A DNA stretch of 64,000 bases from Moniliella sp. 'wahieum' (GCA_003971905.1 RSEE01000003.1:310001-374000); one strand, 5' to 3'; positions 22,997 through 58,417 are shown, numbered from the stretch's first letter. Numbers and translations are program-made. The notes: generated by a model not told the origin, from the letters alone.

Positions 22997-25474
22997 ATGT
23001 TCGCCCTTCGTCTCGGGCGCACTCTCTGCGCCGCCTGCCACCGGCCGCGCTCCCCCGGGCCGCGTCCTGGGCCCTGGGCCCTGTGCGCCTGTCCAGCTCC
23101 CTCGGCGCAGCTGCTGGCACGGGCATGCACAACGGCTTTGACCCCAATACGCTCGCCAGTCTCACCCCCGCGAGCAGAGCATTATCAAGCGTCGCGAGAA
23201 GACAATGGGACCTTCTTACCAGCTCATGTACCAGCATCCGGTTGAGCTCGTCAAGGGCAAGGGTCGTACATGTACGATCCTCAGGGCAACGCCTACCTCG
23301 ATTGCTACAACAATGTCGTCTCTGTTGGGCACTGCAATCCCCGGGTGGTGGAGGCTGTATACAAACAGATGCAGACGCTCAACACGCATACGCGGTACAT
23401 GCATGAGAACATCCTGGATTACTCTGACCAACTTTTGGCCACCTTGAGCCCCATCTGGGCCGTGTCATGTACACCTGCTCGGCGTCCGAGTCGGTTGACC
23501 TTGCTCTGCGGGTGGCCAAATTCAACACGGCGGCGCGGGGATCATCGTGACAAGCTATGCGTACCATGGAACCACAGACCGCTTGCAGCCATCTCCTCAA
23601 CGATGGGTACGCATGTTCCGCTCGACCGTGACGTGCGCACGGTCCGTGCTCCAGACCAGTATCGCTGCGACGATGTGGCCAAGCAGTTGGTGGATGACAT
23701 CAATGCGGCTGTGGACGACATGGAAAAACACGGGATCAAGTTTGCTGGGTTCATTGCCGACATGGCCTTCAGCACTGATGGTCTCTTTACCGAGCCTGCG
23801 GGTTTCCTCCAAGGGGCCATCGACGCAGTTCACAAGCGTGGGGGTCTCTTCATTGCCGACGAGGTCCAGCCCGGATTTGGCCGGACGGGTACTCACATGT
23901 GGGGATACCAGCGGCACGGGATCAAGCCTGACTTGGTGGTAATGGGCAAGCCGATGGGCAATGGCATCCCTATCGCGGCCATGGTCGCTCGTCCTGAGCT
24001 TCTTGACGAATTTGGCGAGAAAGTTAGGTACTTCAACACATTTGCTGGCAACCCTGTGTCTATTGCGGCTGCGAAGGCGACCCTAGACGAGATTCAAGGT
24101 GGGCTTCGCGAAAACTCGCGCAAGATGGGCGAGTACATTCTCAATGCGTTCCGCGAGATTCAGTTGGGCTATCCCCAGATCGGCCATGTCCGTGGTGCTG
24201 GGATGTACTTTGGAGTGGAGTACGTCAAGGATCGTATTACCAAAGAACCTGATGCAGCGCTTGCGGCAGAAGTGGTGCGAGAGATGCGGGAGCGCCGGAT
24301 CCTGATCTCGACCATGGGCCCCGAGGGGGCGACGCTTAAGATCCGTCCCCTCATCTCCTTTAACCAGAAGGAGGCAGATGAGTTGATCAATGGGCTCAAA
24401 GCGACCATGGAAAAGTTGTGCGGCAAAGCTGCGGTGCACACCGACCGCAATGAAGACGGGTTGGCAGCCAAGCAGATCCCACTCTCGACTGACTTTGCCG
24501 AGGGATCCTTAACGAGTTTTACGGGTTTGATGGCAAGGCTCACAAGCACAACAGCGAACGAGACCAGACTTTCTCGGCTAAGGCCAAGTCGGGTAACGGA
24601 GCGCTAATGATCAAGTTTGCCAATCCAGGCGAATCGCACGACGACTCCAACTTGCAAACCGAGCTGATCCTTTGGTTGGGCCGGAATGCTCCGGATGTCA
24701 AGGTGCCTCGTCAGATCCCGGCTCTTACTGGGGAGAATGAGCTGCACATTGACTGCCTAGGGCAAAAGCGGTACGTGCGCGTCAACTCTTTCCTTCCCGG
24801 CATTGTCATGATTGATGCCCCGCGCTCTGTTGCGCAAGCTGGCAACCATGGTCGTGAGGCGGCCAAGGTGACAAAGGGTTTGGAGGGTTTCTCCACCCAG
24901 GCATGCACAACATTCAAGTGTGGGACTTGCAGCACGCCCCGATCAACTACAAGAGCATTGACGTGATCAAGGACCCTGCCACGCGCGAGAAGTTGGAGCG
25001 GGTCTATGCCATGTTCCAAGAAAAGATCCAGCCCAAACTTCACACATTCCGTCGCCAACTGGTCCACAACGATCACTCGGCTTACAACTCCATGGTTGAC
25101 GCTGACCACCCCGAGGAGATCACGGGCATCATCGACTTTGGCGATGCAGTCGAGACAGCGATTGTGTTTGACGCGGCCATTGGAGCATACTATCATTTGG
25201 GCATTGGCAGCGAGGATCCTCTTGAGGCGCCGATTGCGTTCCTCAAGGGGTACAATGAGGTGGTCAAGCTTCTGCCCGAGGAAGCCGAGTTGCTGCACGA
25301 CTTGCTCTTGGTCCGCATTTTCAACAGTCTCATCATCAGCCACTCCGTGTTGTTGATTACCCTGAAAACGCCAAGTACCTTCTGCGCTTTGTCCCTGACG
25401 ACCTCAAGCACCTTGACATTCTACTCAACCACAGCGATGCTGAAAAGGCGCGTTTGGTTAAGGCCGTCGCTTAA
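22997..25474 (+). CDS. Fusion of a class-III PLP aminotransferase/phospho-lyase (ETNPPL/PHYKPL-like) and an APH-family hydroxylysine-kinase-like domain, with a putative mitochondrial presequence
   Basis: YLDCYNNVVSVGHCNP, LNTHTRY, FIADEVQPGFGRTG, GKPMGNG, YFNTFAGNPVS. Then NSERDQTF, IKFANPGE, RQLVHNDHSAYN, ITGIIDFGDAV. There is no stop between the two domains and no visible intron. Confidence 0.85.
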
Positions 25475-28117: not shown

Positions 28118-30731
28118 TTAGCCTCTAGCTAAGCACGTGAATGTCGGATTCAGGCGGGATCCCGTTCTTCCCGCTGGCGGCGCAACCTGGCCCTCCTCTT
28201 CTGGCTGATTCAGTACTGACTCGTACGACGGGGGCATGTTGTCGTTCTCGGCGCTCTCGGCCAATGAGTTGAGGCGAGGGATGGCGTCGGCCAGATCAGC
28301 CTGGCGACCCCGAGCGCGAGATTGGGAGCGGGAGCGAGACATGCCGCGGCTGGGGGTAGTCATTCCTGACCCGCCGGGTGTGGGAGCAAGAGGCAGCCTA
28401 GTTACCACAGAGCCATCGAGATTGTCTCGCACCGTGCTCTTCCGAGGTGGGTCAGATGTGTCAATCGAGTGTGTACCTTCCTTGACTTTCTCCCGTTATT
28501 ACTTCTGCGGACAGAGGGCAAACCGTGGGGCCGCATCTTTGGTATGGGTGAGTGTGAACTGGATGGATCCAAGAGGGGCAGATCAGTAGAGAGGGGCTCG
28601 TGAGGTGCAGTGGGAAACACCGTCGGCGTACTTAACCCAGACGCCGGTGGGTGGGTGGAGCCCCGTGGTTGGGAAGAAGGCCCAGCAACGGAGTTACGCT
28701 GCGCTGCGAGTCGTCCACCGGGCATACTCGCCAATTTTTCCATGTAGTTGGTTGACGGGAACATCGTCCCCAGGCGTCCTGGCCAATAGATTTTGTTCTT
28801 GAGCCTCCAAGTCGGCCAGGCTCATGCCACACACACAAAATTCGTGGGTGCCAGGCTGGAGCGGGCCGCGGAAGCGGTCCACGGCGACTCTTCCTGCTGA
28901 ATCAATTCATCAGCGACTTGGTACGAGCGGGGTTTCACCCTTTCCCGATGGACAAGGGCGACTTCTCTTGATACCGGGGCAACGTCACTGCGCTGTAGGC
29001 CACACAGCATGACGGGATAATGACGGGCTGGCGCAACGTGAATGCCTTGAGTCGTCGCTCAGCGTCGGCGGGTAGATCATCAAATGTAGGGTCGCGGGAG
29101 TGAATGATCTCGACGGTAAAAGAGTGGGTGAAACGAATGTCTCCTTTGGACCCAGGAAGAGGTGGTGGGCCGGATGACGTTGTCATTAGGGACACGGGCA
29201 ATCCCTTGGACAGACCAAGCGTGGTCGCTGCCGCACCCCCGAATAATTCGCTCTTTGGCATCATGTGCATCCATCTCGGCGGGTGTGTGGGGTACAAACC
29301 CTTTCTCAAAGAGACGATGTTTGATATGAGGAACGGTCTGCTTGCCGTGTTTGGATGTATAGAGGTCCACTTGCGTCTCGAGGGAGACACGTACCATATA
29401 GACAATGAGATCGGGGGGTGCTTTCGGCGAGTGTACATCGATATTGAAAATTCCACCAACGGAGATGTTGTTGGAGGTACAAGCGATGCTAAGCAGACCG
29501 ACGGTGGGGTGAACATCATGGTACATGACCGCCAACGCGGTCGAAGGTGACTCGATGCTGGGTACCGTCATGGGAAATATATCCCGAGTCGCATCGACAT
29601 TGCTTCTGGCCCGCCCCGCCCAATACAGTTGCTTTGATCGTGTAGCGTACTCGGCCAAACGGCGATCGTTCAAACGGGGCACAGTCCGAAGGCAAAATAA
29701 AAGCAAACTCAAACCTGCATCCCGGCGGTTAATTAGCTGCAGAGCAAACCAAAAGAGGGAAACGTACCCGTGAATACCCTTGGCAACGAACATTCCTTCA
29801 CTTTCAACATCGTCACCATCCTCGTGCTCACTCGCACGAGGGCGGGATACCGAACGATTGAGGAATCCTGCACTAGGCGTGCGGAGTGAGTGAGAAGAAT
29901 GATGGGAATGGTGGAGCAGGCTCATGGAGCGGTGAGAGGAGGTGGAGTGGCCGTGTGTATGTAACGGACCATCTTCCTCGGGCACGGTCGACGGGCGGTG
30001 GAAGGCACGGCCACGAGGTTCCTCCTCATCAAAACTTGGTCGGTTGCGCGAAAGGGATTGGCTGTGTCGGTTCATCGCCAAACCGCTGTGTTCTGAAATT
30101 GTTGACGAGTTGGCCAAACTCTCATCCCTTCGAGTTTGGGATGAAGAGGTATGACGAGATTCTGATCGGCCCCGGCTGGGAGAGGATTGAGGACGAGCAG
30201 ATTTGGAGGAGGAACGTCCTCGTATAACAGAGGCCAAGGCGCTAGCCAGACCAGTTACACTGGGATCCCTCCGCGACCGGCTCGTGGCCCGGGATGATGC
30301 CCTACCTCGGGTCTCGGCGTCGGGTCCATCAATGCTGTCGCGCCGGTTCCGGCTCTGGCTTCGACCAGCTGGTGGGGAGGGGGCCCGTGATGTGGACCGA
30401 CTGTGGCTGGTCGAGTGATGATTGGGGACACCAATCTCGAGTGTCTTATCCATGATGACCCGCTCGCTCCAGCTGATGGGGACGTGGGAAGAGCTGGATG
30501 GGTCCATGATGCCTACTGTCTCGGAACCACGGAGACGGACACGGATGCCGCCGATGTAGCGGTCGCTGGGGACGTGAAGTTCGATGAGACCACGGACTAG
30601 TTCATCGTCTGTTTGTGGCGGCGCGTCTTCAGCCCGGTTGCCAGCGGCCCTCCCTCCGGTGGGTGTAGGAAAATGACGTTCTGGAGCAGATGAATCTTGA
30701 GCTCCGACGGCTGGAACAGCGTCGTGAGCAT
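28118..30731 (-). CDS. Alpha-arrestin-like ubiquitin-ligase adaptor
   Basis: MLTTLFQPSELKIHLLQNVIFLHPP; LVRGLIELHVPSDRYIGGIRVRLRG; KGIHG(intron)FEFAFI..PFERSPFG; Ser/Arg-rich insert; C-terminal PPSY (PY motif). Confidence 0.75.
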
Positions 30732-31517
30732 GGCTTCCAGCAGGGAGGGGGGAGTTGCGCAGGGCGTGAAAGATGGGGGAAGGGCAGAAGACGCAATTGC
30801 AAACACAATGTTGATGCATGGCGAAAATCAACGGTCACTTGGTGAGACCGGTGACCTCATCGCCTCACTGTTGTTTTTACCCAGCGTTCAACTTGAACGT
30901 TCAACGAACGTTCAGCTGAACCGCTGAACGTTGAACGTGCCACGATGCAGCCTGGGCAGCCTGGGCCTGTCTCCTTCGGCGCCCACCGCTCGTAAAAGCA
31001 TACCTCTTCCAAAGGACATGTCCACATCGGTGCTCGGCTAGGAGGTGGCGTCCCAGTTGGATGAGTGATTTGGCGATTTGATCTTTGATCTTTGATCTAT
31101 CATGTGCAGATCGTCTGGCCCTATCACATCACTGACTGCCTCCCATACCGGTCGTACTGGGTTAGTTTTGCTGCGGCAGAGCTTGTGGTTGCACTAGGGC
31201 TGCTGTGTTTAACGAATGTGAACTTCATCCCGCATATGCACTTCCCGGTATTCAGCCGCTCGCTGAGATGGTTCCCCACTGAGCGTCAATTTGCATGCCA
31301 ATCATGCCTTGAATTCGGATCCACCTGCGTCATCGCGCGCTGAGTGGCCCTCTTCCAAACTATACGAAGTAATGGCCCTCTAAGCGTACCAGCGTATGTG
31401 GGGTGTAAGAAACGGGCGAACGAAAAAGTATGCTTTGGCGCAAACAACAGGATGTGGGACGGGTATAAGACAGATGATGGAGTGGCAAGCGATCCGCACC
31501 GAGATTAATGGTGTGTG

Positions 31518-32731: not shown

Positions 32732-35467
32732 ATGCACCTTCTCCCACGTGAGCGCGACAAGCTCCTTCTCTCTCAGGCTGGCAGTGTTGCTCAGCGCCGT
32801 CTCGCCCGTGGGCTTCGCCTCAACGTCAGCGAAGCCACAGCGCTGATCGCTTGGACACTACAGGAAAAGGCGCGTGACGGCGAGTTGAGCGTGTCGGAGC
32901 TCATGACATGGGGCAAAAACATCCTCGGTCGCGTGCATGTTCTGGGCGATGTACCCCATTTGCTCCATGAAGTCATGATTGAGGCCACGTTCCCCGATGG
33001 TTCGTTCCTGGTCACTATCCACGACCCCATCGCTACGCCGCAGGAGGCAGCATCGAGAACGCACTCTTTGGCTCCGGTTTGAGCCCCCCTGACCCGCAAG
33101 TCTTCCTAAAGGACCCGCCTAAGGTGCTTTCCGGCCCCGAGCTTCCTGGTGCGATCGTGGTCAAGGCCGACGCTGCCCCGATTGTGCTCAACAAGGGCCG
33201 GGGTCGAATTTCGATTCGTGTCACCAATACGGGTGATCGCCCCATTCAAGTCGGAAGCCGTATGCACATCCTCCAGTGTCCTTCCCCTGTTTCGTGCGGC
33301 TGAACTTCCATCTTTCTTTGTCAGACTACCCCTTTATTGAGACCAATCCGTACCTTTCCTTCCCCCGCCTAGCCACCCTCGGCAAGAAGCTCGACATTCC
33401 TGCTGGGACGCTGTGCGGTTCGAACCGGGAGACGTGCGCACGTCACATTGGTGGATGTGGGTGGAGAGCGCCCGTATCTGGCTGGCGGTAATGGAGTGGC
33501 TACAGGGTACTTGGACGAGTTGGACCCCTGTCGTAGCCGAGAAACTCTTGGCTATGGGGGTGCCCAAGGCCGATGTGGAGCTTGCTGAGGACGGACGTCC
33601 CGCCAAGTCAATCCGGACTGAGGATCCCAACCAGCTACGTTGACACGCGAAGCGTATGTTGCCTTGTATGGCCCTACGGTGGCGACCGTGTTCGTCTGGC
33701 AGACACGGATCTTTGGATCGAGGTGGAGAAGGACTTGACATCGTACGGAGACGAGTGCAAGTTTGGTGGAGGCAAAGTACTCCGGGACGGGATGGGCCAA
33801 GCGAGCGGTGCAGGTGATGAACACGTTGGATACGGTCATTATCAATGCCCTCATTCTCGACTGGTCTGGCGTGACAAAAGCTGATATTGGGCTTAAGGGT
33901 GGTCGGATTGTGGGAATTGGCAAAGCGGGCAACCCCGGCATGATGGATGGCGTTACGCCCGGTATGGTTGTTGGGTCTTGCACCGAGGTAATTGCTGCTG
34001 AAGGTCTTATCTTAACCGCGGGTGCGATCGACGCGCACGTGCATTACATTTGCCCTGACTTGTTCCAAGAGGCCTTGGCAACAGGAGTCACGACCGTTAT
34101 TGGTGGCGGTACGGGCCCTTCAGCCGGGACATCGCTACAACCTGTACGCCTGGAGCGGATAATGTGCGACGGATGTTTGAGGCGACGGATGGAGTTCCGC
34201 TGAACTTTGTCTTTACGGGCAAGGGAAATGATTCAGGCTTGCCTGGCCTCCGGGCTCAGATTGAGGCAGGGTGTGGTGGACTTAAAGTTCATGAGGATTG
34301 GGGCACCACCCCCGCGGTCATCGACGCATGTCTGACCGCATGCGACGAGTATGACGTGCAGTGCCTCATTCACACCGACACGCTTAACGAGTCCTCCTTT
34401 GTCGAGCGTACAATTGACACGTTCAAGGGCCGCACTATTCATGCGTACCACTCTGAAGGTGCTGGTGGCGGCCATGCACCTGACATTATCCGTGTGGCAG
34501 GGGTGGAAAATGTGATTCCCTCCTCAACCAACCCGACTCGCCCATATGCAAAGAACACTCTCGACGAACACGTGGATATGCTTATGGTCTGCCACCATCT
34601 GAGCCGGGACATTGCGGAGGACGTGGCATTTGCCGATTCGCGGATTCGTGCCGAGACTGTGGCTGCCGAAGACGTGCTGCAAGACACGGGGGCTCTAAGC
34701 ATTATTTCTTCCGATTCCCAAGCCATGGGTCGGATTGGGGAGGTGATTTCGCGCACCTGGCGTACAGCGGCTAAGATGCGGACGGTTCGTGGGCCATTGG
34801 CCAAAGCTCCCACTGGCCTTTCTCCCGACTCGGAGGGCAAGGACAATGCCCGTGCTCGCCGCTATGTGGCAAAGTACACTATCAACCCCGCCATTGCACA
34901 GGGCCTGTCGCATGTCATTGGTTCGGTTGAAGTAGGCAAATGGGCGGACTTTATCCTGTACAAGCCCTCCTACTTTGGGACCAAACCCGAGATGGTACTC
35001 AAGGGTGGTCAAATCGCCTGGTCTCAGATGGGCGATGCCAACGGATCCATCCCTACTGTCCAGCCCATTTATGGACGGCCCATGTTTGGGTCGGCCCCGA
35101 AGCTGCTCACAAAAACTCCTTCGCTTTTGTGAGCAAAGCAAGCGTCGACAAAGGTGAGTCCGTGCCATTGCCTTTGTGTGGACTGGAACTGACCGTATGT
35201 GTGAACAGGAGTCATTGCCGGATATGGACTTGATAAGACAATCCAGCTCGTCACGAACTGCCGCAAGATCGGCAAGAAGGACATGAAGCTCAATGACTGG
35301 TTGCCCCAAATTACTGTTGACCCTGAGACGTATGTCCCACACCGTTTCCCCTCTGAGAATGCACTAACCCATTCTACTCCAGATACGATGTGCATGCCGA
35401 CGGCGAGCTTATGACTGCCCCGGCGGCAACGCAACTGCCTTTGACGATTAAAAGCCATTTCTTCTGA
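32732..35467 (+). CDS. URE1: Urease (eukaryotic fused gamma-beta-alpha)
   Basis: [88 protein letters not shown]; about three introns. Confidence 0.97.
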
Positions 35468-41943: not shown

Positions 41944-42670
41944 TTACGCCTGAGCCTTGGGCCGCAGCAACAGCGACACGGTGAGCGTGGTGGGCCGCGG
42001 CCTTGTCCGCGTTGCGCGAAGCGACCAGCTTGACTAGTCGGCCTTCTGTGCCGCCTGCTCACGCTGCTTGCGCACCTTGAGCGCAAACAGGTGACGCTTG
42101 TGCTGCAAGCGCACCGGGGTGATCAGGCGCTGGATCTTAGGCGCCTTGGTGTAGGGCTTCTTGCCCTCAGTCTTGGGCACCACCTCACGGCGGATCACGT
42201 ACTGGCGCAATCGTCCTCCTTGGTCAAGTTGAAGAACTTGCGAATGTGGTTGGCACGCTTGGGACCCAGACGCTTGGGCACAATGCTAGCCTCGTCGGTC
42301 AGCCGGGAATCTCCTGCTCGCCCTGCTTGACAATGATCAAGTGAAGCGCGGCAATGTCGGCCAGCAACAATGCAGCCACGAACCGACTTGCGCCGGCGCT
42401 CACCCGTGCGGCGCTGACGGTAGCACGAGTGGCCCTCGGACAGCAGCAGGCGCACACGGTGCGGGACAAGCACACCCTGCTTCATGGGGAAGCCCTGCTT
42501 GTCGTTACCACCGCCGATGCGGACAACGTAGCCCTTGAACTCGTCGCCGAGAACGTCAATCTCAACGTCCTGGCCCATGCGCTTCTCCCAAAGATGCGCG
42601 TCTTGCGGTCATCGTCAATCTCGAAGCTCTTCTGAGCCCCGGTCGCAGGGTTGGCAAAGTTGAGCTTCAT
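41944..42670 (-). CDS. RPS6: 40S ribosomal protein S6 (eS6)
   Basis: [65 protein letters not shown] 5'-UTR intron lies at 42682-42752. Confidence 0.97.
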
Positions 42671-43145: not shown

Positions 43146-43596
43146 ATGGGTCGCATGTACGGAAAGGGTAAGGGCATTTCGTCCTCGGCGCTGCCCTACA
43201 GGCGCTCGCCCCCCTCGTGGCTCAAGGCCACCCCGGAGGAGGTCGCCAACCAGATCTTCAAGCTGGCGCGCAAGGGTCTGACTCCTTCGCAGATTGGTGC
43301 AGCTGCGTGACTCGCAGGGCATTGCCCAGGTCCGCTTTGTCACGGGCAACAAGATCCTCGGATCCTCAAGTCGGAGGGTCTCGCGCCCCAGATTCCTGAG
43401 GACCTGTACCACCTCATCAAGAAGGCCGTGTCGGTTCGCAAGCACCTCGAGCGCAACCGCAAGGACATGGACTCCAAGTTCCGTCTGATTTCATCGAGTC
43501 GCGCATCCACCGCCTCACGCGCTACTACAAGGCCAAGGGCGCGTGCCCCCTACCTTCAAGTACGAGTCGGCGACCGCTTCGACCCTCGTTGCCTAA
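43146..43596 (+). CDS. RPS13: 40S ribosomal protein S13 (uS15)
   Basis: [72 protein letters not shown] 5'-UTR intron lies at about 43068-43140. Confidence 0.97.
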
Positions 43597-45268
43597 ACAG
43601 GTGCCTCGATCTCGGTAGCGGTCAAGGTCGAAGCTAGAGTGCGCTTGCTCTCCTTACAGGACGAAGACGGGCCCCACCCCGGTCCTAGTCAGTCGGCCTT
43701 GTGGGACGCAGTTCACTCTTTCGCTTCGTATGCACTCTGCACGCATCGCTGTGTCGCATCTTTGCTCCGGCTCCCCCCTATGGTAGACGTCGCTTGCTGC
43801 TGCTGGACGTTGTCTCGAAAAATACGATGGGATCGTCATGCCCTCTCTGTATGGGTCTTGTGGTTTTCGCTGCAGCGTAGCGATCCGAACGGTGCATTGA
43901 TGTTGATAGATTGGTTGGAACGGACACTAGGGTGGCGTTCTTTGCCGGGTGAGTGTGTTTGCGCATGGGGCACGCCAGAACTACTTTCGGACGGAAACTG
44001 TTGTGTTGGATAGAGGGCACATCGGATTGGGAGATCGGTAGGAAGGCGCGGGGGGGGCGGAGCACAGGACAGTGTCTAGCTCGGTGGGAGAAAATCTCTC
44101 CTAAATTACACTACTTGACGCGCCAACAACTGAGCGACCTCTGTTGGTATGACAGTGCTGATGCGATTCTCATCTCGGCGCCCACCTCAGATCCCAGTCT
44201 TGGACATGTGACTTCTGCATAACGCAGCGCTTGAATACATGCAGAAGAACAGCAGGCAAGAGGTCCCGAGACCAAAGTGTATTAATGACAGGGGGTCGGG
44301 GCGATCCAATTGAAACGACTTGCCAAAAGCCATAGCGAAGCCAAGTGGGTTGCATGGCGTGCTTCTTACGGCTTGGGCTGCACGCGGCTTCGGCAGACGA
44401 AACGAGGACGCGCTGGCGGTGGGCAGAGGTTGCCGCAAGGCGGTCGATTAGAGCCCCTGAGGCTGAGGCTGAGGCAGAACGCCAGAGGCCCGAAGCAATA
44501 TGTGGTTGGTTGGTGAGACGGCTGAGAAGGGAGGCCTGGGGGCCTGAGGGCAGAGAGGGTGGAGGCTTGTGTTGTGTGGGCTGGGTTGGATGGGCAAGGC
44601 ACGACGGTGGCAGTGAGGGCCACACCGGCTGTGGCTGCAGCCGGCACCGGCACAGGAGCGCGACAGCCTCCCACCGAGTGCAGCCGCTGTGCACTGGAGT
44701 ACTGAGCAATATCCTGCCTGCTGTTACATGTTCCTTGCAGACGGCGGCCCAGGCAAAGCGCTGGTGTCGCCGGCAGTCGCCGGCTGCGGGGGTGGGAAGG
44801 CTGGGGTAGCCGGTGGCCAGGCTCCGGCGTCCGCTGGCCATCCGCATCCAAAGTTCCTCTGCAGGAGCAGCATGCATATTGCATGCGCATGACGTCAGTG
44901 CAACAGACGAGCCATGGCGTCAGCGCTCAGCCTCACTAGTCACTTCATCATTGCGGCCGCGTTTGTGCCGGACGCCCAAAGTCTGCTGCCGCCCTGGGCC
45001 AGGCGATGGTCTGGCTCGGAGAAATAGCCTCCGCAGAGGGGCAGTGTGCGTGCGGCCTACCTAGTCCCTCTAGCGCCTAACCCCGCCTTGCCCGCCGCCC
45101 AGCACAGCGGCAGTGTCCCCCAGCACGACCGCAGCCACCCTCCCCCCGCATTTTTTCCGCCCCCCCTGTTCTGTATGGGTCGCGCAAGTTGCCACCCGCC
45201 TCGCCTTCTGCACATTCTTACCACCACTACCACCCGCTCCCACCATCTTCCCGCCAGTTCATTCCACC

Positions 45269-46061
45269 ATGGTATTTGGCCTCGCTATCGCACGCGAGCA
45301 CTCCATTGCTGAAGAGCCTCGCGGCCGTTCGGGTCGCATCCCCCCGTCACCACGGGCCGCGGTGGCGCGGGCAACGTGCGTATCCTGTCCCCACTCTCGC
45401 CTTGCTCCTGCCACTAACATGTACTGTCTCGTCACGGCAGATGGTACGTTCGCCCTCGCGTGGTCGCCCAGGGCCCGACGCGGAGGAGATTGCAGCCTAC
45501 CAGATGACGGCCGACCACCCTCCCACCACCTTTTTCCGGCCGCGGCGGTGGGGCAACGTTCGCTCCCCCTCCCGAGACCCGGACGAGCGGGCACGGATTG
45601 CGAACGAGGAGCAACGCGACCAAGAACTTCAAGAAGAGTACCGCAGGCAAGAAGCGGCTGCACCCCATTATGCGCCCACGGGTCGAGGTGGCCGCGGCAA
45701 CATTCATGCAGAAGGGTCCCTGGACAGGTCGCTTTCGGAGCCGCACGAGCAACAGCCAAGAGCGTGGTCGCCGGGAAGGTCCTGTTGGATCGGTACGTTT
45801 GTGATTCTGCACGGATGAGCTGTTCTAACCCTGTATACCCACTAGTTTTCCGCTCCCTTTCCGTTCTCGATCTCGTGAGACATCGGCTCAGCGACGGGGA
45901 AGCGACGCGGGCGAGTCACCCAGTCGGAATCAGGTTGGGGTGCCATTATCTGCTACTGCTTCGGCCCCCGTGGAACACGCACGAGGCGTACCCATTGCCT
46001 CAGAGCTAGCGGATGTGGATGAGGGCCCAGAAGCCAGCGACAGCAACGAGGCCTGTCCTAG
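45269..46061 (+). CDS. Small protein with repeated GRGGxGN motifs (DUF3602-like)
   Basis: TGRGGAGN(intron)MVRSPSR; GRGGGGNVRSPSRDP; TGRGGRGNI; two introns. The end is uncertain. Confidence 0.6.
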
Positions 46062-46443
46062 TCAGCGTACCCCAAGTTGGCCCGCTTCACGTTCAACAGG
46101 TGCCAACCATTTTTCTGTTTTCTTTGTTCAGCCTCTAGCCTTCATATGTACTCGATGGAATTCGAGTTGGGCAAGAGACCTCGCGTGCTCGTGGCCATGC
46201 ACCCCGTTGCTGCAACCCCAAACAGCCACGGCAAAACGGTTATAACACCCTTGCGGCCTAATTTTTCACCTGCGCTCTCCGTGCTTGCCCCGAAACCTTC
46301 CTTGCTTTGCTTCCTACGTGTCATCCTGCACCGACCCCTTTCTCATTGATCCCACTTTACCTACTTTCTTGTAGTCCTAGGAACACAAAATCAGAAAACG
46401 TAAGCATGAAATGTCGATGGGCACCCTCGGGGGTCTACCACCA

Positions 46444-47104
46444 TCAGGCCAGGCCAGGGGGAGTATCATGGCGTGCGATCTCCTGTCGCTTTTCCTTGCC
46501 CACAAGGCTTCGGCAATTGTCAGAGCAAACTCAAAAGTGGTACCAGGGCCTCGGGAAGTGATAAGGTGTCCGCCTGACACGCGCTGTTCTGATAGTAAAC
46601 AAAGTCATCTGCAGCTGCGCCTTGACCGAGGGATGGGAGGTCAGAGACTTGTCCGTGATGCCGCCGCCTTGGCCGCAAGAGGGCCAGCACAAATAAAGGC
46701 GACCACCTTCCCCCTGATCATAGGCTGCTTGAGCAACGCCGTCACCTCCGAGTGTTCGCCAACGTATCAGCCCCAGGCATTCCACCAGGGACAATGTACG
46801 CGTCGTACCCTACGCTGGTGTGTGCGCCCTCCAAATCAGTGAGGTAGAGGTCGGGGACAATCTTAACCCCCCGCGAGCAGGTGGCATACGCCGGCTTCTG
46901 CTCTGCCATCCACTCCCCGGCTTGCCCACATAAGCGGACGTGACAGAAACGCCGGCACGGACTGGACACGTTATGGAGGTCAACAGGCCGCCTCGCAGGG
47001 CTGGGCGCCAGGCCAGATGACTACGCACCCAGCACATCATATGTGGTGGTAAACTCAATCTCCTCCGAGCCATCGGCAAGGAAAATCAATGCGGTTTTGC
47101 CCAT
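46444..47104 (-). CDS. DJ-1/PfpI family protein (YajL/PARK7-like)
   Basis: MGKTALIFLADGSEEIEFTTTYDVL(intron)VRAG; CSRGVKIVPD; YDAYIVPGGMPGA; ICAGP; LITSRGPGTTFEFAL. Confidence 0.9.
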
Positions 47105-47429
47105 TGTGGTACTGCGGTAACCGCCTGGCGAGACAAAAGAGGAGGTGGTGGGGGCACAAACGCAGACGGGAAGTCGCAAGTGGTTTGCTGAGGCCGACAG
47201 GCGGTCGGTGCGCACGCCGCGCAGGCGTCCGTCAGCATCGCCTTACCGGATATGATCGCGGAGCCCGCTTGGTAACGTGGAACTGCATGCAACCCTATTG
47301 TGTATTACGCAATCATTTCTAGGGTTGGTGTCGCTGGCAGCATGTCTACGCCCCCGTGCCTCATCGCGTGTCCGGCGGTCTGGTTGCGCGGCGGAGCCAG
47401 CAGGTATAACCGCGTTCGCGCCGCGCATC

Positions 47430-48620
47430 CTCTTGCTTCTCTTCTCCCAAGTCGGGCACCCACATCGATCTGCACTTCCCGTCTGGCGCTGCGCTTCGGC
47501 GCGGACCGACGGGGGGCGTAGACGATCCTAACCCTAAGGTTGAACCAAATTGCGTAGCCGCCGACTGGTCCTGGGTGTCTGGTTTGCGGGCCGGGTGCGC
47601 TCCTCCTACCGGATTAGGGACGGGCAAGCCGGCGAGCATGCGTCGTTCCACTTGTGGCGTCCCCTGTGGGGACGTTCCTTGGTTTGACGATCCTCGTGCT
47701 TCTCATTCCTCGCTCATGGGCTTTGGCCTTTTGGGTAGGGGGGGGGAGTGACCGCACCAGATATTCATGTCGGTATCGCGCCACGCCTATCCTCTGCCAG
47801 TTGATGCCTTGAGGTGTCTATCGGGTGCGACTTTCCAGCTTTGCTGCCGTTTTCGGTCCGCACCCCTGGTCGTGCCGGCGACCAGAAAGTTCTCTCCTTG
47901 GGGCAACCCTTTGCTGGGGAACAAGCTAAAGCGTGGACTGTGCCTTCAGAGGGCCTTGCAGGGTGGCCGGCAGGTGGAGCCGCAAGGCCGCCCGCCCTTC
48001 ATCCTCTTGGCTTAGACTTTTGATCTCCCTGCTCGGTGGATGCACGGCGCCCTCGGGGCTGAGTGGTCGCCAGCACTCTTACTTTTCGCCTCCCATGCGG
48101 GTTAGGGAGGTGGGGAGTGGGAGTGCTCTCGCGTTTAGCCGTGTTAGAGCTGCGTGCTCGCCTTGCTCGCCTTCTGCCTCGGCCCTTGGGCTTGGGGTGG
48201 GGGCAGGGAATATTTTTGCACCCCGTTCCGGATGGACGTGTCTGTCTGGTTCTACTCTACAATGCCATTACGCTTGTGCTCTGTGGCGCAGCGTTTCTTG
48301 TCGACGGGTTTTTGGTCGCATTGAGACGATCGACTTTGTTCCAATTGTAGCAGGATCCAGAAGTGGTCAAGGAAAGATCGCGGGGGGGACGGAGGGACCG
48401 ACGTGTTGGAGCATTAGTAGTCGCATGTTGAGCTACCGCGGGTTGCTCGTTAGCGTGCTTTGGCCCAAGGTCCCTTCAGTCCTTCCTCAGGCCTACTAAG
48501 GAGTTCCGTTCTCTCGCACCCGTTTCCTTGTTCCGCAGCCAAGCCCCTAGTGGCGACGGGCTGCTTGATGTTCCTCTGAAGGCGTTGTTTAGCTTAGACT
48601 ACAGCCACCACCACGAGTGG
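47430..48620 (+). ncRNA. Candidate telomerase RNA (TER); ends not defined
   Basis: Template CCTAACCCTAA at 47527-47537, two nt after a hairpin (47480-47524) with a C(UUCG)G tetraloop. Candidate pseudoknot at 47823-47889. 23-bp helix at 48072-48127 with 6 G-U pairs. Multibranch domain at 48382-48487. No credible ORF. Confidence 0.62.
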
Positions 48621-50939
48621 GATTGCGCCACCCTCGAGGACAACCCGGACTTCGGATCTCACTGGCATCGCAGATTTGTTAAGCCTCCCACGCTCCTGAA
48701 GCACAACAGGCACACCACTGTCGAGACGAAGGTTCGCCTGGAGAGGGTGCTGAACTGGACCCAGCTATGTCGAAACTGTGTGACAAAGTGTATTCCACGC
48801 CATGCTTCTGAAACGCATAACATTCGCACAAATAAGGGCATTGGGAAGCCTGATGAACAGTGGCCAATGACTAAATGATCGGGAAGACTTACTGGAATAG
48901 AGCAACTCAGTAACAGGGTGGCCGTGAAGGAAACGAGAAAGGAGTCTGGACATAAAAGCAGGTCGGTCAGTACACCCAATCGTTTGAGCAAAAACATCAA
49001 TTGAGGGCAGGCTGGGAAGTCTCAGACTTCCAAGGAAGGTCTGTGGGCCGTCACTGGGCAAGGCAGGCTTCAACTCGAGGTCAATGCAAACGGACCAATT
49101 CAGTGGGCCGCTGGAGACGCATAACTGGGTTCGTACACGCCCCCACCCCGCACCCGAAGGCCAGAGGGGATGGACACCACCGACATGCCGAAAAGCACGA
49201 GTCCTCTCGACCAAGAGGAGCACTATTGCCCCCACCCACGAGGGGTGGCTTGCGTGCCCTACAGTGGAAACTGCGAATTTGGTTGGATACCAGGTGTATC
49301 GATCATCGACAACCCAGCCTTGCGAAACGGCGAGCAAACATACCAGTTGTTGTTTTGTGCGGGCTCCTCGACCGACGGGTGGAGGGAGAATGTACGTTGA
49401 AGCTACCAATCAAGGCAATGGACGTTAGTAACGATGTATGATGCAAACGAGAAGGATCAGACAACGAGGTGCTGGCAAGCACCGAAGAAAACAATCGTGC
49501 CGAAGCACGTAGCGCCGACGAGACGCCGCCTTGTCGTTTCGGCATGGTCATATAGGCCGGGGCAAGGAAGATGAAGACATCATAAAGAGAGAAGGCCAAC
49601 AACTTACCAGTAAGAGATGGATGCTGGGGGGCGATGGGTGATGGCGGTAGTGGGGGGGGTGGGCTGAGGGGCAATTGGCCCGCCCGCAAACGCCTTTTTA
49701 TCGTGCTGCTCGGTAGGTTGCCTCCACCTGCAAATTTTCTTCGTTGGAAGCAGCCACGTGACCCCTTGGCGCAGGCGGGCGCAGTGCCGAGACAGCCCTT
49801 CCACGCTTATGTCAGAATGGAATCGGCGAACGGGGGGCATAGGGTTAGACGCCTGTGCCACGTCACTAGTCCCTCCAGCGGGCAGAAAGCGCCGAGTCAG
49901 TGTGCGGAAGTGAGCGAGCGGAAAGGACGGGGGTCCTGAATCCTGCGCCGCCGCAGTGGAGCAGGCGGGGGTGTTGGATGGACCAAGTAAGCGGTGGCAG
50001 CGCAAGCAGGGGGGCAGTGTGCGTGTTTAATTGCAGCCTGTGGCGCCCCAAGGCCGAGGGGGGCGCCCCTTGCTTAGAGCACACGCTAGGTGAAATATTG
50101 TGCGGCTGCGCTGCGCTGCGCCGTTCGGGGGCCAAGGCGCACCACCGCCCCACAAGGGCAGCCGCATCCCCAGATGCAAGAGCGACGCATTAAGCGCTAA
50201 GAGCTAAGACCTGGCGCTCAGTCTGAGCCGCTCGAGTCCGGCTTCCAGCTCAGTCAGCTAGTCATAATCAGTCATCGCACCCCGTAGTGGACGTGGAGGG
50301 TGGCAGCCTCCAAGCGCCCCTCTGCATTCGGCCTTCTTCTGGGCCCTCCGTCGTCTCGCTATCGCCATCGCCCTCCCGGTCTTCTGTCCGACCATCCTTC
50401 CGCCCCTGCCGCCCCTACCTCCCAGAACCAGTAGCCCAGCGCACGAGAATGGGTGCAGGCCAGCTGCCCTCGGCCGTTCCCGCCAACACGGCTGTTTCCT
50501 CTCTTGATGGCCGTGTGGCCACCGCCACACCATGTCCCTTGACCGCCGCAAGCCCGCTGGCCCGCCGCCTCCGCCCGGCCTCTACGCTTTTCCGCCGTTC
50601 CCATCGCATTCCTCCCGCCCAGCCCCTAATATACCCTTCGGCCAAGCCGCACCACAGCCCAAACCACCACCAGACCCCCTCTGCCCAGCCGATTAACCCC
50701 CACAGTCATTCGCCCAATAATCCGGCCAATGGAATAGGCCCCTCGGACCCGGCTTGCTCCTTTCTTTCCAATGTCCCCGGCTGTGTTGAAGATGACGTAC
50801 AGAGGGCCTGGGTACGGCTGCTAGTCTTCCTGCTTTTTCCTCGCCCGCGGCTGTGCCTGGGCCAGGCCGAGTTTCCTGGGTTTGCCAGGCTGTTGCAGCC
50901 ATGCATCTCCAGCACACTCCCCTAGGCGAGGGGATAGAC

Positions 50940-53269
50940 ATGCAATCGCCCTTCCATCCCTCCACAGCACCGCCGTTGCCAGTTGCAACAGACATGCCTC
51001 TGCCACATCATCATGTCGACCTTCCGAGGAGACGGCAATCCGTCGGTGGGATACCTTGGCTTGCTGATGGACCACATCGTCCTAAATGCCACATCCGCCC
51101 GAACTCACTTTCGCAACGGTGAGCATATGCAGAGCAAACGATTTCTGGATCAACTGCAGCATGCCCTGGATCAAGTCTTAAACGGTGGCACGTCAAACAC
51201 CCATCTGCCGGAACTTTGCTGCTTGCATCGCATGTAATGGGCGCTGGACCGTCAACACCGTCGGCAGCCTGTCCGGCCATGAGCGCCCTCGACAGCTATG
51301 CCTACCCCAGTGAGAGAGTTGCTAATATACCTATCTTCGATTCTCCTGGGTTGGGAAACGGCGAGCGAGTGATGATGATGACAACATGGACCCAGGCTTG
51401 GTCAAGTTCTTACGTTCTAGCCACATTCAGCATGGGCGCATGCGTCATTCCCTCGTCTACAAGACGGGGTTCACAATGTTTCCATTCCCCAGACATTGCC
51501 AATGGATGGGCTATTAGCTCCATTGACCGCACTATTCCACCCGCGACTGGCAATACGTCCGATGGACTTCTCCTTCTCTCGGCCTCAAACTTCCCTCCTC
51601 GAACGCAAGTGACTCCCCTCATCTGCCTTTAGCCGTGGAGTCTACAGCTCCTGGGGGAATTCATCCGAACCAGTGCTTACAAAACGATTTGAGTACCAAC
51701 ACCGCCAACGAGAGATACCAGTGAACACTGCCTCCTTCACATCCCTCCTCCTTTGGCAACACCTTAGTCGGGGCGATTCGCCTTCAATTCTTCCCATTAC
51801 CAATGTCAAGTCCCTCAGGCGCTTGGTGATGTGACACGGGCCCCGTCCGACCTGAGAGGACAGAGTACTGCCCAGACGCAGATTCAGCGCGAATCGGCCG
51901 CCGCCCACATTATCACCGCTCGTGGTTATGCCTACGGCGCATATGCGCGCCGCATCTGATTCTTACGTTATGGCCCCATCTCTCCTGCGCACTGCGCTTC
52001 CGAGGGTCCCCCTGGCCGTTCCCTCACCCATTTTAGACGATACCCATCTTGAATGTGATGCGGTGGCTTCCTCCGTGAATCCTGACTACGGCTCTGGTTG
52101 GACGAGGTTCTCCTCGAGCTCCTCGATGAGATTTGTTCTGACTGTGAGTAAACCCTCTTTTCTGCTACACGGACGATGTCCATTCTGACCCTCCTTTTTC
52201 TCTCTGTTCAACAGTGGACTTTAAAATAGCGCGGGGGAGCCTGTCTACAACTCTTGATGCCCAAGCGGATGGCTCGACTGGACGAGTCACCTGACTTTCG
52301 TCCGTTCCGGTTCCGGATCAATGCGTTTACCAAGGCGTTCCACGAGCGGGTGTTGCAACGGCAGAAGGGGAACTTGGAGGGAGAGATGACCCTGAAGCAA
52401 CTCAAACTCTACCTCTGGTCTCAGCCTTTGATTTCCCGCTTCAATGAAGATGGGCGCAAGGCCAAGTCGCGCGGGAACCACAATTGGATTATTGATGCGC
52501 GCAAGCGTCCCGAGGGAGGGTGGGAATTTCGCGAGTTTACTCGTCGGATTGCGGGGGGCCGACCCGAGCGTGCCTGAACCAACGATGGGTGTGGAAGTTG
52601 CGGATCTGGGACCCTATCGGGCCGAGCGACGGCATTCAGGCCTCGTATGAAGTCAAGGAGGCACCCAGTTGGGTTCGATGGAGTGATGACAGGGTGCATG
52701 ATACGCTCATTGGTACGCCTACAATGCCAGGGGAGGGAGGGCAGATCACGGTGGTGGCTACCTGTGTCCAAAATGGGCAGCCACAACAGCTCCATCAAAG
52801 TTTTTTCCTCGAAGTCGTCCATGCGGAGCTGATGGATCCCATGGCCTTGACCAATTGCGCCTTGTCCGCCCCACCTGAGGCGACGAGCCGCATTCGGTAT
52901 CCTGGCGATACGGCTTCCTTCGGTACAAGCAGCCGCTCCGCCGCCCCAGCATGCACCCCTGAACCCATCAGCGCTGGCAACATTCCAGTTTCCTCTTCGG
53001 TGTGTCAAACCCAGCTCGGTCCACGAAGTCCCTTTAGCTGCGACTTCGACTTCCTCCGTGGGTTTGAGCCAACTGTCGAATCCGTCAACGAATTCCCAAC
53101 CTCATCCTCATTCGCTCCGTATGGCAATCGAGATGCGTCAACAACACCATGCCAACCAACTTCTCCTTTCTCTCCCAGAGCCGCGAAGTACTGGTTCACA
53201 TCACTCGACTCCTTTTGGCCTAGAAGATGGAGGGGCGCACTAATGGCTCTCTGCGCCACTTCAGCCTGA
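50940..53269 (+). CDS. Conserved basidiomycete protein of unknown function (core 52215-52815; 5' exons uncertain)
   Basis: After intron 52144-52214: FRPFRFRINAFTKAF..YLWSQPLISRFNEDGRKAKSRGNHNWIIDARK..WEFREFTRRI..WVWKLRIWDP..APSWVRW..LIGTP, ending in an Ig-like segment. Confidence 0.55.
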
Positions 53270-53932: not shown

Positions 53933-54943
53933 TTACTTGCAGTACTGGTCCCACAGCCATCAATCATCAGTCAGACCATCACGGCAGTTCGCAAAGCAAG
54001 AGGGGGGAAACGTGAGCGTACCTTCTTGACCCACTGAGCGGCCGTTTCATTGTACTGCTTACGGTCGGTCTTGTACTCCTCGGCTAAACGAAGCAAAGTC
54101 AGTATATTGTACCACCGCGCTGGCCACAAGCAAGTGAACAAAGGGGCAACATACCGATCGAAGCGACCAACGCATCGTCCGGGTCGGGCTCGGCAATGAG
54201 TTGCTCAATCGTCAGAAGAACTGGGCAAAGCAAGAAAAGGAACGTCAGCGCTGCGTCTTCCTCATCCCCATAATGGAGAGGAGAAAGGGGGGGACGTACT
54301 AGTGGAAGCCTTGGTTGAAGGTTTCCAAGCTTCGCTTTTAAGCAGCCCGACACACAGGTTTCCGCTGTCGTCGACATTGGGGTGATAAATACGGGTGTTG
54401 AACTTGACCTTGGGCGCGCGGAATGGGTACTCGACGGGAAAGTCGAGCGAGAGCTCAAAGCTACCCTGAGCGTAGGGGCTTTCAGGGGGTCCCTTGATGA
54501 CCGCTGTCCAGGAGTAGAGGTTGTCGCTAGATAAGCATACGTATTAGCCTCCAGAATGTGGTGATGGGTGGATTTGTATGGGGGAGTAGGGGATCAAGAC
54601 GATAGAACATACCCGTTTGGCTCGACAACTTGGGGAATGACAAAAAAGCGATGGAGCGGAGGTAGTAAGACATGGTTAGTACGGAATGTAGATGCCGATA
54701 CGCAGGACATACCAATTCCTTGCAGAGGTTCTTTCTGGAGGTCTTGTAGCTCCTGCCAAACACAAGGTTAGCTCCGACGTTCAGTCACACGATCTGGCGA
54801 ATGGGTTGACGCCAGCGGGCTGTCAGGATGTTGACATTTGCTAACGCTCAAGTGGAGCGTTGACGTTGAAGGCATCACCCAACTAGATAAAAGCAGGGAG
54901 TACGGCCAGAACACACCTTGGTAAGACGACGTGAGCTGGCCAT
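53933..54943 (-). CDS. Ubiquitin-conjugating enzyme E2 (Ubc4/UBE2L3-like)
   Basis: MASSRRLTK|ELQDLQ; GPPESPYAQGSF..FPVEYPFRAPKVKFNTRIYHPNVDDSGNLCVGLLKSEAWKP; EPDPDDAL; multiple short exons; YCK*. Confidence 0.92.
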
Positions 54944-56916: not shown

Positions 56917-58417
56917 ATGCAGCTCGCCCCCCTCTTTGTCTCCCTTGCCCTCGCTCTCGGGGCCACCGCTCTGCCCAAGCCCAGCCCCGCAGCAGGCGTC
57001 CTCGAGATCCCGCTAGCTCGCAACCCTGCCCGCAGCGTCCATGCCAGGAACGGTGCCGTGGACTCGGTCCTCATTCAGAAGGAGATCAACCGCGTCAACA
57101 CCAAGTACCAGCGCACCTTTGACAACTACTTCGCAAATACGGGCCTGCGCCACCCTTTGGACACCCGTGACCACTCCAGCCGCCGCGGTACTGGGGAAGT
57201 CGCTTTGACCGACGTGCAGGATGGCTTGCTCTGGACCGGTACGTGCCATCCTTCCCCTATCAGATAGCATCCACACATGTACCTCACTCAACATGTACCT
57301 CACTCATCACTACTCTGTCTGCAGGCATCATTGCGTTCGGCACGCCTTCCCAGTCCATCCCAATTGGTCCGTACCCTCTGCCCCCCCACTTCTAAGCGCG
57401 CGCCGCACCATTGGTGGCGGATAGCCTCTATGAGTCTCTATAAACTGACGTGACCGTTTCCCCCAGACTTTGACACGGGTAGTTCCGACACGCTTGTCAA
57501 CCCTTCTGCTTACAAGCCCTCTGAATCGAGCACTTCCGACGACACTCATACGACCTTTAGCGACTCGTACGGTGACGGCACCACTGCCTCGGGCGAGGTG
57601 TACGCGGACAAGCTATCGATTGGTGGCTTGGGCGCGCCCAAGGCCTACATTGGAAAGTCCAACTCCACCTTCCTCTCGGGCGAGGGAAACAGCCAGGGCA
57701 TCAGTGGCATGGCTTTCCCCAATCTCGCTTCGTTCAAGCAGCAGGAGCCCTGGTTCTACTCCCTTATCAAAGCGAATGTGCTGAGCCAAAAGTCCTTTGT
57801 CTTTGATTTGAAGAAGTCCGGATCCACCTTGTCCATCGGCACGGCCGGAAGTCAACCCTCATGGGCTAAAGTGACTGACGCTTCCTACTGGTCCATCGAC
57901 GCCGAAGTGAACGGCAAGTCGATCAGTGGGATTGTCGACTCGGGTACGTATCTTTGACGGGCGTGTTGTATGACTGCAGAAATTCTGACGCAGGCACTCT
58001 CTTGGTTCTGGCCAACACAGGCACGACTTTGGTGGTGGTAAGTACACGCTTTTTCTGCTCATCCCTACCAAAATATAGCCCACCCTAACCCCTTGACCTT
58101 CTTTCCCCCTGCAGGCACCTTTTCTCGAGGCTCTCGAGCTATACGCTTCACTCGGATTGGCTCCTCAATTCGGATCGGGCTCCGTGCAGGCCACCTACGA
58201 TTGCTCCAGCCCCCCTTCCGTCACTTTCAAGCTCGGCGGCAAGTCTGTCAACTTGGGCAAGTACACGTCGTACGGAACAGACGACAGTGGAAACTGCGTC
58301 TTTGCTGTTGTTGGCAGTTCGGGCACTTCCAGCATTGGCTGGATTTTGGGTGACAGTGTCTTTCAAGCCAATGGCCCCATTACCTTCGATGTGGCCAACG
58401 AGCGTGTGGGCTTCTGA
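56917..58417 (+). CDS. Secreted pepsin-like aspartic protease (A1)
   Basis: Signal peptide MQLAPLFVSLALALGATA and a prosegment; FDTGSSD and IVDSGT catalytic motifs; WILGDSVF; FDVANERVGF*; four introns. Confidence 0.93.

Follow-up and report, generated by a model that had tools for sequence, protein, structure and literature searches.

A very probable telomerase RNA template preceded by a strong hairpin in Moniliella sp. 'wahieum'

Telomerase RNAs (TERs) evolve fast, and the TER of each fungal lineage had to be found separately. Among basidiomycetes, we found described TERs only for Ustilaginales, Urocystidales, Violaceomycetales and, as a prediction, Malassezia, and the 18 sequences of PMC9564094 might include a closer relative of the locus considered here. 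The window, the whole 64,000-nt stretch of Moniliella sp. 'wahieum' DNA that was analysed, carries the 11-nt telomere-like sequence CCUAACCCUAA in a stretch free of recognisable genes. Is this sequence a telomerase template with a boundary helix beside it, a protein-binding site in DNA, or a chance occurrence? We conclude that the stretch is very probably a TER template preceded by a strong hairpin. The best explanation of the locus, which we consider probable, is that 47459–48224 on the plus strand is a Ustilaginomycotina TER gene, in which CCUAACCCUAA is the template and the hairpin at 47464–47526 sets its boundary (Table 1).

Table 1. Features of the candidate TER locus (positions counted from the first letter of the window)
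Feature	Position	Strand	Basis
TATAA, candidate TATA box, 54 nt before the position where the contigs begin	47405–47409	+	sequence; inference
Candidate mature telomerase RNA, about 766 nt	47459–48224	+	contig ends in relatives; fold stability
Long hairpin of 26 pairs abutting the template; proposed template boundary element	47464–47526	+	energy; pair probabilities
Apical GCGC-UUCG-GCGC hairpin with cUUCGg tetraloop	47491–47502	+	sequence; pair probabilities of 0.99
GGACCGA, inside the 3' strand of the hairpin; putative function	47503–47509	+	invariant in the window and three of three distant relatives
Template CCUAACCCUAA, containing UAACCCUAA	47527–47537	+	sequence read; lies in conserved block 47518/19–47544/47
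GGUUGAACCA, conserved 3' flank of the template	47538–47547	+	part of conserved block 1
Large arm after the template, with core helix 47572–83/47756–67	47552–47786	+	fold and changes in relatives
Conserved block 2	47615–47644	+	matched in one distant relative, 4 other letters
Variable hairpin with two double changes in one near relative	47703–47751	+	fold and changes in relatives
Conserved block 3, holding the 5' strand of candidate pseudoknot stem 1	47805–47829	+	0–1 other letters in two distant relatives
Candidate pseudoknot stem 1, GGGUGCG/CGCACCC (47823–29/47859–65)	47823–47865	+	fold; inference
GCUAAAGC, candidate 3' strand of pseudoknot stem 2	47925–47932	+	read by eye
Conserved block 4	47972–47992	+	0 other letters in one distant relative
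CR4/5-like multi-helix junction	48049–48191	+	predicted fold
P6-like hairpin, 23 pairs	48072–48127	+	fold; 48093 C>U retains a G-U pair
P6.1-like GAGC-UGCGU-GCUC, 4-pair stem and 5-nt loop with U and G	48147–48159	+	sequence read
Sm-like AAUAUUUUUG, 6 nt before the contig end	48209–48218	+	position

Named protein matches are almost all from Ustilaginomycotina and place the genome in that subphylum, with no close named relative among the matches listed. Specifically, an arrestin-like frame (29080–30834, minus strand) matches Pseudozyma, Ustilago, Malassezia, Exobasidium and Tilletia at 33–57% identity, and the best named matches of a urease exon (34059–35132, plus strand) are Violaceomyces (79%), Tilletiaria (78%) and Tilletia (78%). 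Published Ustilaginomycotina TERs use UAACCCUAA as template (PMC9564094, section 5; PMC10035886, section 19), including the TER of U. maydis (PMC9564094, section 5). At the Moniliella locus, CCTAACCCTAA starts at 47527, as the first-pass annotation had read it, and the 11 nt of CCUAACCCUAA are in perfect repeat register, which U47526 breaks.

The motif by itself is only mildly unusual and not beyond chance, since 14 of 100 shuffles carry TAACCCTAA at least once; in the 64 kb it is present once, within 47527–47537, where 0.14 copies are expected. One alternative is an RNA that is structured but has nothing to do with telomerase, either non-coding or an untranslated region, and that contains a telomere-like 11-mer by chance. 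Published screens of Ustilago genomes yielded 248 or 782 of these loci in each (PMC10035886, section 19; PMC9564094, section 5), and an Rfam search matched no telomerase family, either in 44000–52000 at E up to 1 or at gathering score in the whole 64-kb window. Against such an unrelated RNA, the 11-mer is the best-conserved block in diverged relatives, it stands 0–2 nt past the strongest local helix, and the order of the downstream elements fits a telomerase RNA. We regard this explanation as highly improbable.

The conservation was read from contigs of four public runs placed on 47300–49000. These are the runs listed for the locus; each has a small share, all come from one study whose library kind is not on record, and no RNA run is among those listed. 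Contigs begin at 47459 in all four runs and end at 48224 in two of the four, without loose ends there. Two near relatives are represented by whole contigs of 776 and 773 nt, which span 47459–48224 exactly and differ from it by 13 and 58 letters, respectively, while no contig of a relative covers 47300–47458 or 48225–48469. The common ends weakly suggest a discrete molecule about 766 nt long, as contigs cannot prove RNA ends; the RNA would be made with ends at 47459 and 48224.

Contigs of three distant relatives (517–789 nt) match only in short collinear blocks, namely 47518/19–47544/47 (to 47561 in one), 47615–44, 47805–29 and 47972–92. The best-kept block, with 0, 1 and 4 other letters in the three relatives, comprises the 3' strand of the boundary hairpin (GUAGACGAU), the template and GGUUGAACCA. 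Within the 30 letters upstream of it, GGACCGA is present in all three. An exact 21-mer around the template gave no match in JGI metagenomes. A gapped GGACCGA...CCTAACCCTAAGG pattern gave three loci there, two of them in AT-rich contigs and one in a stretch resembling coding sequence on a contig from a gut metagenome, and all were dismissed as unrelated chance matches.

The same conservation bears on a reading of the motif as a DNA telo-box, that is, a Tbf1/Tay1 site without a role in RNA, placed in the promoter region either of the divergent DJ-1/PfpI gene or of some other gene. For this reading, there is just one site of TTAGGG type, and 423 bp (nearest ends) separate it from the DJ-1 start codon (47104). 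However, conservation reaches well past the motif on both sides, the contigs of about 770 nt start 68 nt upstream of the motif and leave out the promoter side, double changes that keep pairing are found downstream, and the ribosomal protein genes are about 4–5 kb off. A bare telo-box, against which the first-pass annotation had also argued, is thus barely credible.

Consistent with a telomerase template, the 63 nt immediately upstream form, in silico, a stable helix directly 5' of it. Folded alone, the hairpin at 47464–47526 has an energy of −38.5 kcal/mol (shuffle mean −24.2, z −4.80), a value equalled by 0 of 200 shuffles, and its pair probabilities are 0.83–1.0 locally and 0.76–1.0 in the full RNA. 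Specifically, AUCG (47464–67) pairs with CGAU (47523–26), UCUGC (47469–73) with GUAGA (47518–22), CUUCCCGUC (47475–83) with GACGGGGGG (47508–16), GG (47485–86) with CC (47506–07), and CUGCGC (47489–94) with GCGCGG (47499–504), the last closing the UUCG loop. The last pair, A47464–U47526, adjoins C47527, and two nucleotides (CC) remain before UAACCCUAA.

In the TERs of yeasts and filamentous fungi, the accepted boundary element is a helix immediately 5' of the template (PMC3603654; PMC3592445, section 19), and a putative boundary helix has been drawn for the TERs of U. maydis (PMC9564094, PMC10035886) and Malassezia (PMC12506658). Aspergillus and Neurospora boundary helices (PMC3603654, PMC3592445) resemble the Moniliella hairpin in being stable local helices of about 8 pairs or more that stand about 2 nt from a TTAGGG-type template, the 2-nt spacing given for Aspergillus (PMC3603654, section 22) being the spacing found here; the TERs themselves differ, at 1.5–2.4 kb. 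The boundary helix is what is expected of a fungal TER and is a known kind of element, not a new mechanism. The core idea of the first-pass annotation, a telomerase template adjoined on its 5' side by a stable helix where a fungal boundary element would lie, is borne out.

The pairing that had been proposed for this helix is a different matter. All strings on which the proposal was built lie where it had placed them, namely CGTCTGGCGCT (47480–47490), GCGC-TTCG-GCGC (47491–47502), GGCGTAGACG (47515–47524), TTGAACCAA (47540–47548) and TTGGTTTGA (47679–47687). The C(UUCG)G hairpin at 47491–47502 is genuine, with pair probabilities of about 0.99 both locally and in the full RNA. The outer stem, in which 47480–84 and 47486–90 pair with 47515–24, can be drawn with 10 standard pairs, but it is not favoured: in a 90-nt context the hairpin at 47464–47526 has an energy of −39.1 kcal/mol against −18.1 kcal/mol for the proposed fold, a gain of 21 kcal/mol, and all 10 outer-stem pairs have a probability of 0.0. 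The proposed stem also leaves 47503–14 as a 12-nt one-sided loop, with GGACCGA in it; this is possible, but GGACCGA stays unpaired only if 47475–83 is ignored. By predicted energy, the most likely partner of the conserved GUAGACGAU (47518–26) is AUCG-A-UCUGC (47464–73), not 47480–90. This putative basal pairing of 47464–73 with 47518–26 was chosen by energy and not by covariation, because the 5' strand is not visible in the distant relatives. In the near relatives, an extra C after 47477, opposite a run of six G, and in one of them 47500 C>U, which retains a G-U pair, fit either stem model.

The other half of the proposed architecture is a second helix, 3' of the template, between 47540–48 and 47679–87. 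The complement is complete, nine of nine including two G-U pairs, and a partner as good for TTGAACCAA arises in just 78 of 2000 mononucleotide shuffles (about 4%). Even so, each of the nine pairs has a probability of 0.0 in the ensemble of the 766-nt RNA, whether or not the template is held open, because 47642–91 forms a stronger local hairpin than TTGAACCAA with TTGGTTTGA. One change in a near relative, 47645 G>A, speaks for the proposed helix by weakening the competing stem 47642–47/47686–91. Both pairings thus exist in the sequence, and we consider it very unlikely that the RNA adopts this exact architecture, a boundary stem at 47480–90/47515–24 with its 12-nt loop and UUCG hairpin followed by the second helix. 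None of the other conserved blocks is complementary to GGUUGAACCA, which may be kept as a single strand.

The relatives also distinguish the parts of the 47464–47526 hairpin that are conserved from those that are not. Directly before GGACCGA, the three distant relatives carry stem-loops GCGC-UGUGA-GCGC, GCCC-AUU-GGGU and GCGUC-UAC-GACGC (stems assigned by eye, in loose ends of the contigs). The apical stem is therefore kept or covarying in all three. The UUCG loop of the hairpin is absent from all three, the loops there being UGUGA, AUU and UAC; in the near relatives, no listed change falls within it. As read from these sequences, the tetraloop appears to be a feature of the lineage and not a conserved functional element. 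cUUCGg tetraloop hairpins close UUCG with a C-G pair on a stem rich in G+C, and the apical hairpin here does the same. Because loops in the relatives are 3 or 5 nt long and of other sequences, nothing here implies a specific function of the tetraloop.

GGACCGA and UAGACGAU are conserved in sequence beyond mere pairing, and this observation points to a further possibility, namely that the RNA is a TER whose boundary is set by a long-range helix or by a protein on GGACCGA, with the hairpin serving mainly as a protein-binding arm. Vertebrate TERs use a long-range P1b helix (PMC3603654, section 22), and the minimum-energy fold pairs CCCA at the 5' end with 48193–96. The predicted long-range helix is weak, however, with four pairs, and the hairpin abuts the template as yeast-type boundaries do. 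We consider a long-range or protein boundary unlikely, and prefer the hairpin at 47464–47526 as the boundary element.

With this hairpin in place, the RNA would bind telomerase reverse transcriptase and template telomere synthesis, the enzyme copying CCUAACCCUAA (47527–37) into TTAGGG repeats. The helix probably sets the template boundary: it would block the reverse transcriptase beyond C47527 or C47528, and only telomeric letters would be added. The UUCG-capped tip would be a stabilising cap in this lineage only, and GGACCGA, invariant within the hairpin's 3' strand, is likely to contact a protein.

Burial of the template in stable pairing would have spoken against the proposal. In the unconstrained fold, 47533–39 and 47542–45 pair with 47889–902 at a probability of about 0.4, the 3' half of the template taking 47896–902, and this pairing counts against the TER reading. 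Keeping the template open requires 4.5 of 359 kcal/mol, indicating that it is not stably buried. The strand at 47889–47902 (plus strand), whose complement is the template's 3' half with its flank, shows two changes in relatives that keep pairs, yet each relative carries a 1-nt insertion there. Apart from this, GACGATCCT occurs twice in the candidate RNA, at 47521–47529 (the junction of boundary and template) and at 47686–47694 (the foot of the 47642–91 hairpin); by a rough estimate, chance would give about one repeat of this kind in an RNA of 766 nt.

Downstream of the template come, in this order, a candidate U-A-rich pseudoknot, a P6/P6.1-like junction and, near the end, an Sm-like site. The order matches that described for Ustilago and Malassezia TERs, which supports the reading of the locus as a TER. 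Evidence of selection at the RNA level comes from the large arm after the template. In its core helix, five sites vary, of which four keep the pair and one breaks an end pair. In the variable hairpin of the arm, 47707 U>C and 47747 A>G together turn U-A into C-G, and 47718 G>U and 47729 U>G together turn G-U into U-G; this region is rich in indels, and its alignment is less certain.

The pseudoknot at 47823–47932 is a candidate read from the sequence. The loop of stem 1 contains ACUUUCCA and GCUUUGCU, and in stem 2 GCUUUGCU (47838–45) would pair with GCUAAAGC, with three U-A pairs included. Changes in relatives improve stem 2, since 47844 C>G makes a G-C pair and 47845 U>C turns G-U into G-C. 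The fold of the pseudoknot region is not above that of shuffles (z −1.24; 18 of 200).

The 3' domain (48049–48224, junction and tail) has a predicted energy of −90.0 kcal/mol (z −3.30), with 2 of 200 shuffles equally stable. The P6.1-like stem-loop resembles the P6.1 sequence quoted in PMC10035886 (section 19), which is weak evidence; the minimum-energy fold prefers an alternative GCUC at 48165–68 over this stem. For the Sm-like AAUAUUUUUG, position is the only informative property, ATTTTTG being no rarer than chance (5 in the window against 5.36 expected). Sm-like sites for comparison are AAU5-6CY (PMC10035886) and AAUUUUU (PMC12506658). Strings resembling CE1–CE3, namely TCGATCT (47465–71), CCTTGA (47807–12) and CGCCCGCC (47989–96), were dropped, as their order relative to the template differs from that in Ustilaginales (PMC10035886).

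As a whole, the 766-nt RNA folds to −359.3 kcal/mol (z −3.49), and 0 of 20 shuffles are equally stable. Changes in the two near relatives (13 and 36 listed; 22 more of the second left out) were scored on the constrained fold, where 16 pairs are kept, 17 are broken and 14 changes fall at unpaired places. The fold as a whole is therefore not validated, while some helices are supported, and we dropped the minimum-energy fold as a model. Helices 47634–40/47695–701, 47800–05/47933–38 and 47836–39/47843–46 are ruled out by these changes. The two double changes of the variable hairpin, together with four of five pair-keeping changes in the 47572–83/47756–67 helix, show that selection at the RNA level is visible elsewhere in the RNA. 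At this locus the sequences and the predicted stability are shown, as is the fact that relatives keep the template block, the apical stem and GGACCGA.

Our preferred reading is that the locus is a TER gene standing alone and about 766 nt long (47459–48224, plus strand). The next gene upstream is DJ-1/PfpI, which lies on the minus strand and starts at 47104 (Pfam E 1.3e-4, below cut-off), and 354 bp separate this start from 47459. When 16 and then 95 reading frames around the locus were scanned with Pfam, the only matches were DJ-1/PfpI (below cut-off), S6e, S15, UQ_con and Asp; NDK, DUF1115 and cysteine hydrolase were not among them. No Emi1-like twin-Cx9C frame lies near the locus, the three in the window being at 14.9, 25.9 and 56.7 kb (intron-split exons could escape). 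The locus is thus not arranged as in Ustilaginales, where TER follows Emi1 on one strand and comes from the Emi1 mRNA, nor as in Malassezia, where NDK1 or cysteine hydrolase and DUF1115 are the flanks. The spliceosomal 3'-end signals ATAAGT and GTAAGT are absent from 46500–50500. An ATAAGG at 48832 was rejected as the RNA 3' end, as it lies 600 nt past the contig end. We infer that the TER gene is independent and snRNA-like.

Compared by description and not by sequence, the candidate shares several properties with the U. maydis TER (UmTER/ter1; PMC9564094, PMC10035886), which belongs to the same subphylum. Both have the UAACCCUAA template with a putative boundary helix 5' of it, and the template/pseudoknot domain, the CR4/5 with P6 and P6.1 and the U-rich Sm-like site near the 3' end of UmTER have counterparts that are candidates only in Moniliella. 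UmTER differs in length (1,291 nt against about 766 nt) and in origin, as it is excised from the 3' untranslated region of the Emi1 mRNA (PMC9564094, sections 5, 6 and 11), whereas the Moniliella locus has a divergent DJ-1/PfpI gene 354 bp upstream and no twin-Cx9C frame nearby. The putative Malassezia TER (MgTER; PMC12506658) is likewise a compact basidiomycete TER with a boundary-like stem beside the template. Its P6.1-like helix, its proposed pseudoknot with three U-A-U triples, and its AAUUUUU at the 3' end without spliceosomal cleavage motifs are likened to candidate features of the locus here. MgTER is shorter (about 480–500 nt), and its flanks, NDK1 or cysteine hydrolase and DUF1115, are not seen in Moniliella; it adjoins NDK1 and may be co-transcribed with it (PMC12506658, sections 9 and 13), and some Malassezia templates differ (PMC12506658). 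A third, mid-sized basidiomycete TER with its own promoter region would help to reconstruct the origin of the mRNA-derived Ustilago pathway, and the locus offers a compact boundary hairpin and one invariant motif that are directly testable.

An independent gene also allows a bolder proposal. The ciliate stem II boundary motif is known as a template boundary design. The Moniliella element might likewise be the 5'-terminal hairpin of an independently transcribed snRNA-like gene, with the RNA 5' end about 5 nt before the hairpin and GGACCGA as a sequence-specific anchor for the reverse transcriptase; it would then stand nearer to the ciliate motif than to the P1 or core-enclosing designs of other fungi, and a second helix with 47889–902 may transiently mask the 3' half of the template. 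We hold this combination to be doubtful.

Among the other features of the window, the neighbouring exons match ribosomal proteins S6e (42198–42608, minus strand) and S15/S13 (43311–43634, plus strand), a ubiquitin-conjugating enzyme (54265–54543, minus strand) and an aspartyl protease (57454–57954, plus strand). Low-depth contigs of relatives match 48470–48587 (plus strand), where an unrecognised gene downstream may have an exon; the matched part is preceded by a UACUAAG that resembles a branch site and by a pyrimidine tract with CAG at its end (48522), and the frames tested in 48432–53266 matched no Pfam family. An uninterrupted 453-aa frame at 23246–24607 (plus strand) encodes a class III aminotransferase. 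Named proteins among its best 120 matches listed are all bacterial (Klebsiella and Brenneria 60%, Pseudomonas 56–57%), and the gene may have been acquired from bacteria, or the list may be biased by the word-based candidate filter. The sole weak Rfam match near the TER locus, Lambda_thermo at 44242–44368 (E 0.093, below gathering score), was set aside as chance. At 33780–34071 (minus strand), Rfam 5_ureB_sRNA scores 63.9 bits (gathering score 40) and overlaps the urease exon on the opposite strand by 13 nt; this match most likely reflects conserved urease coding sequence and not a small RNA.
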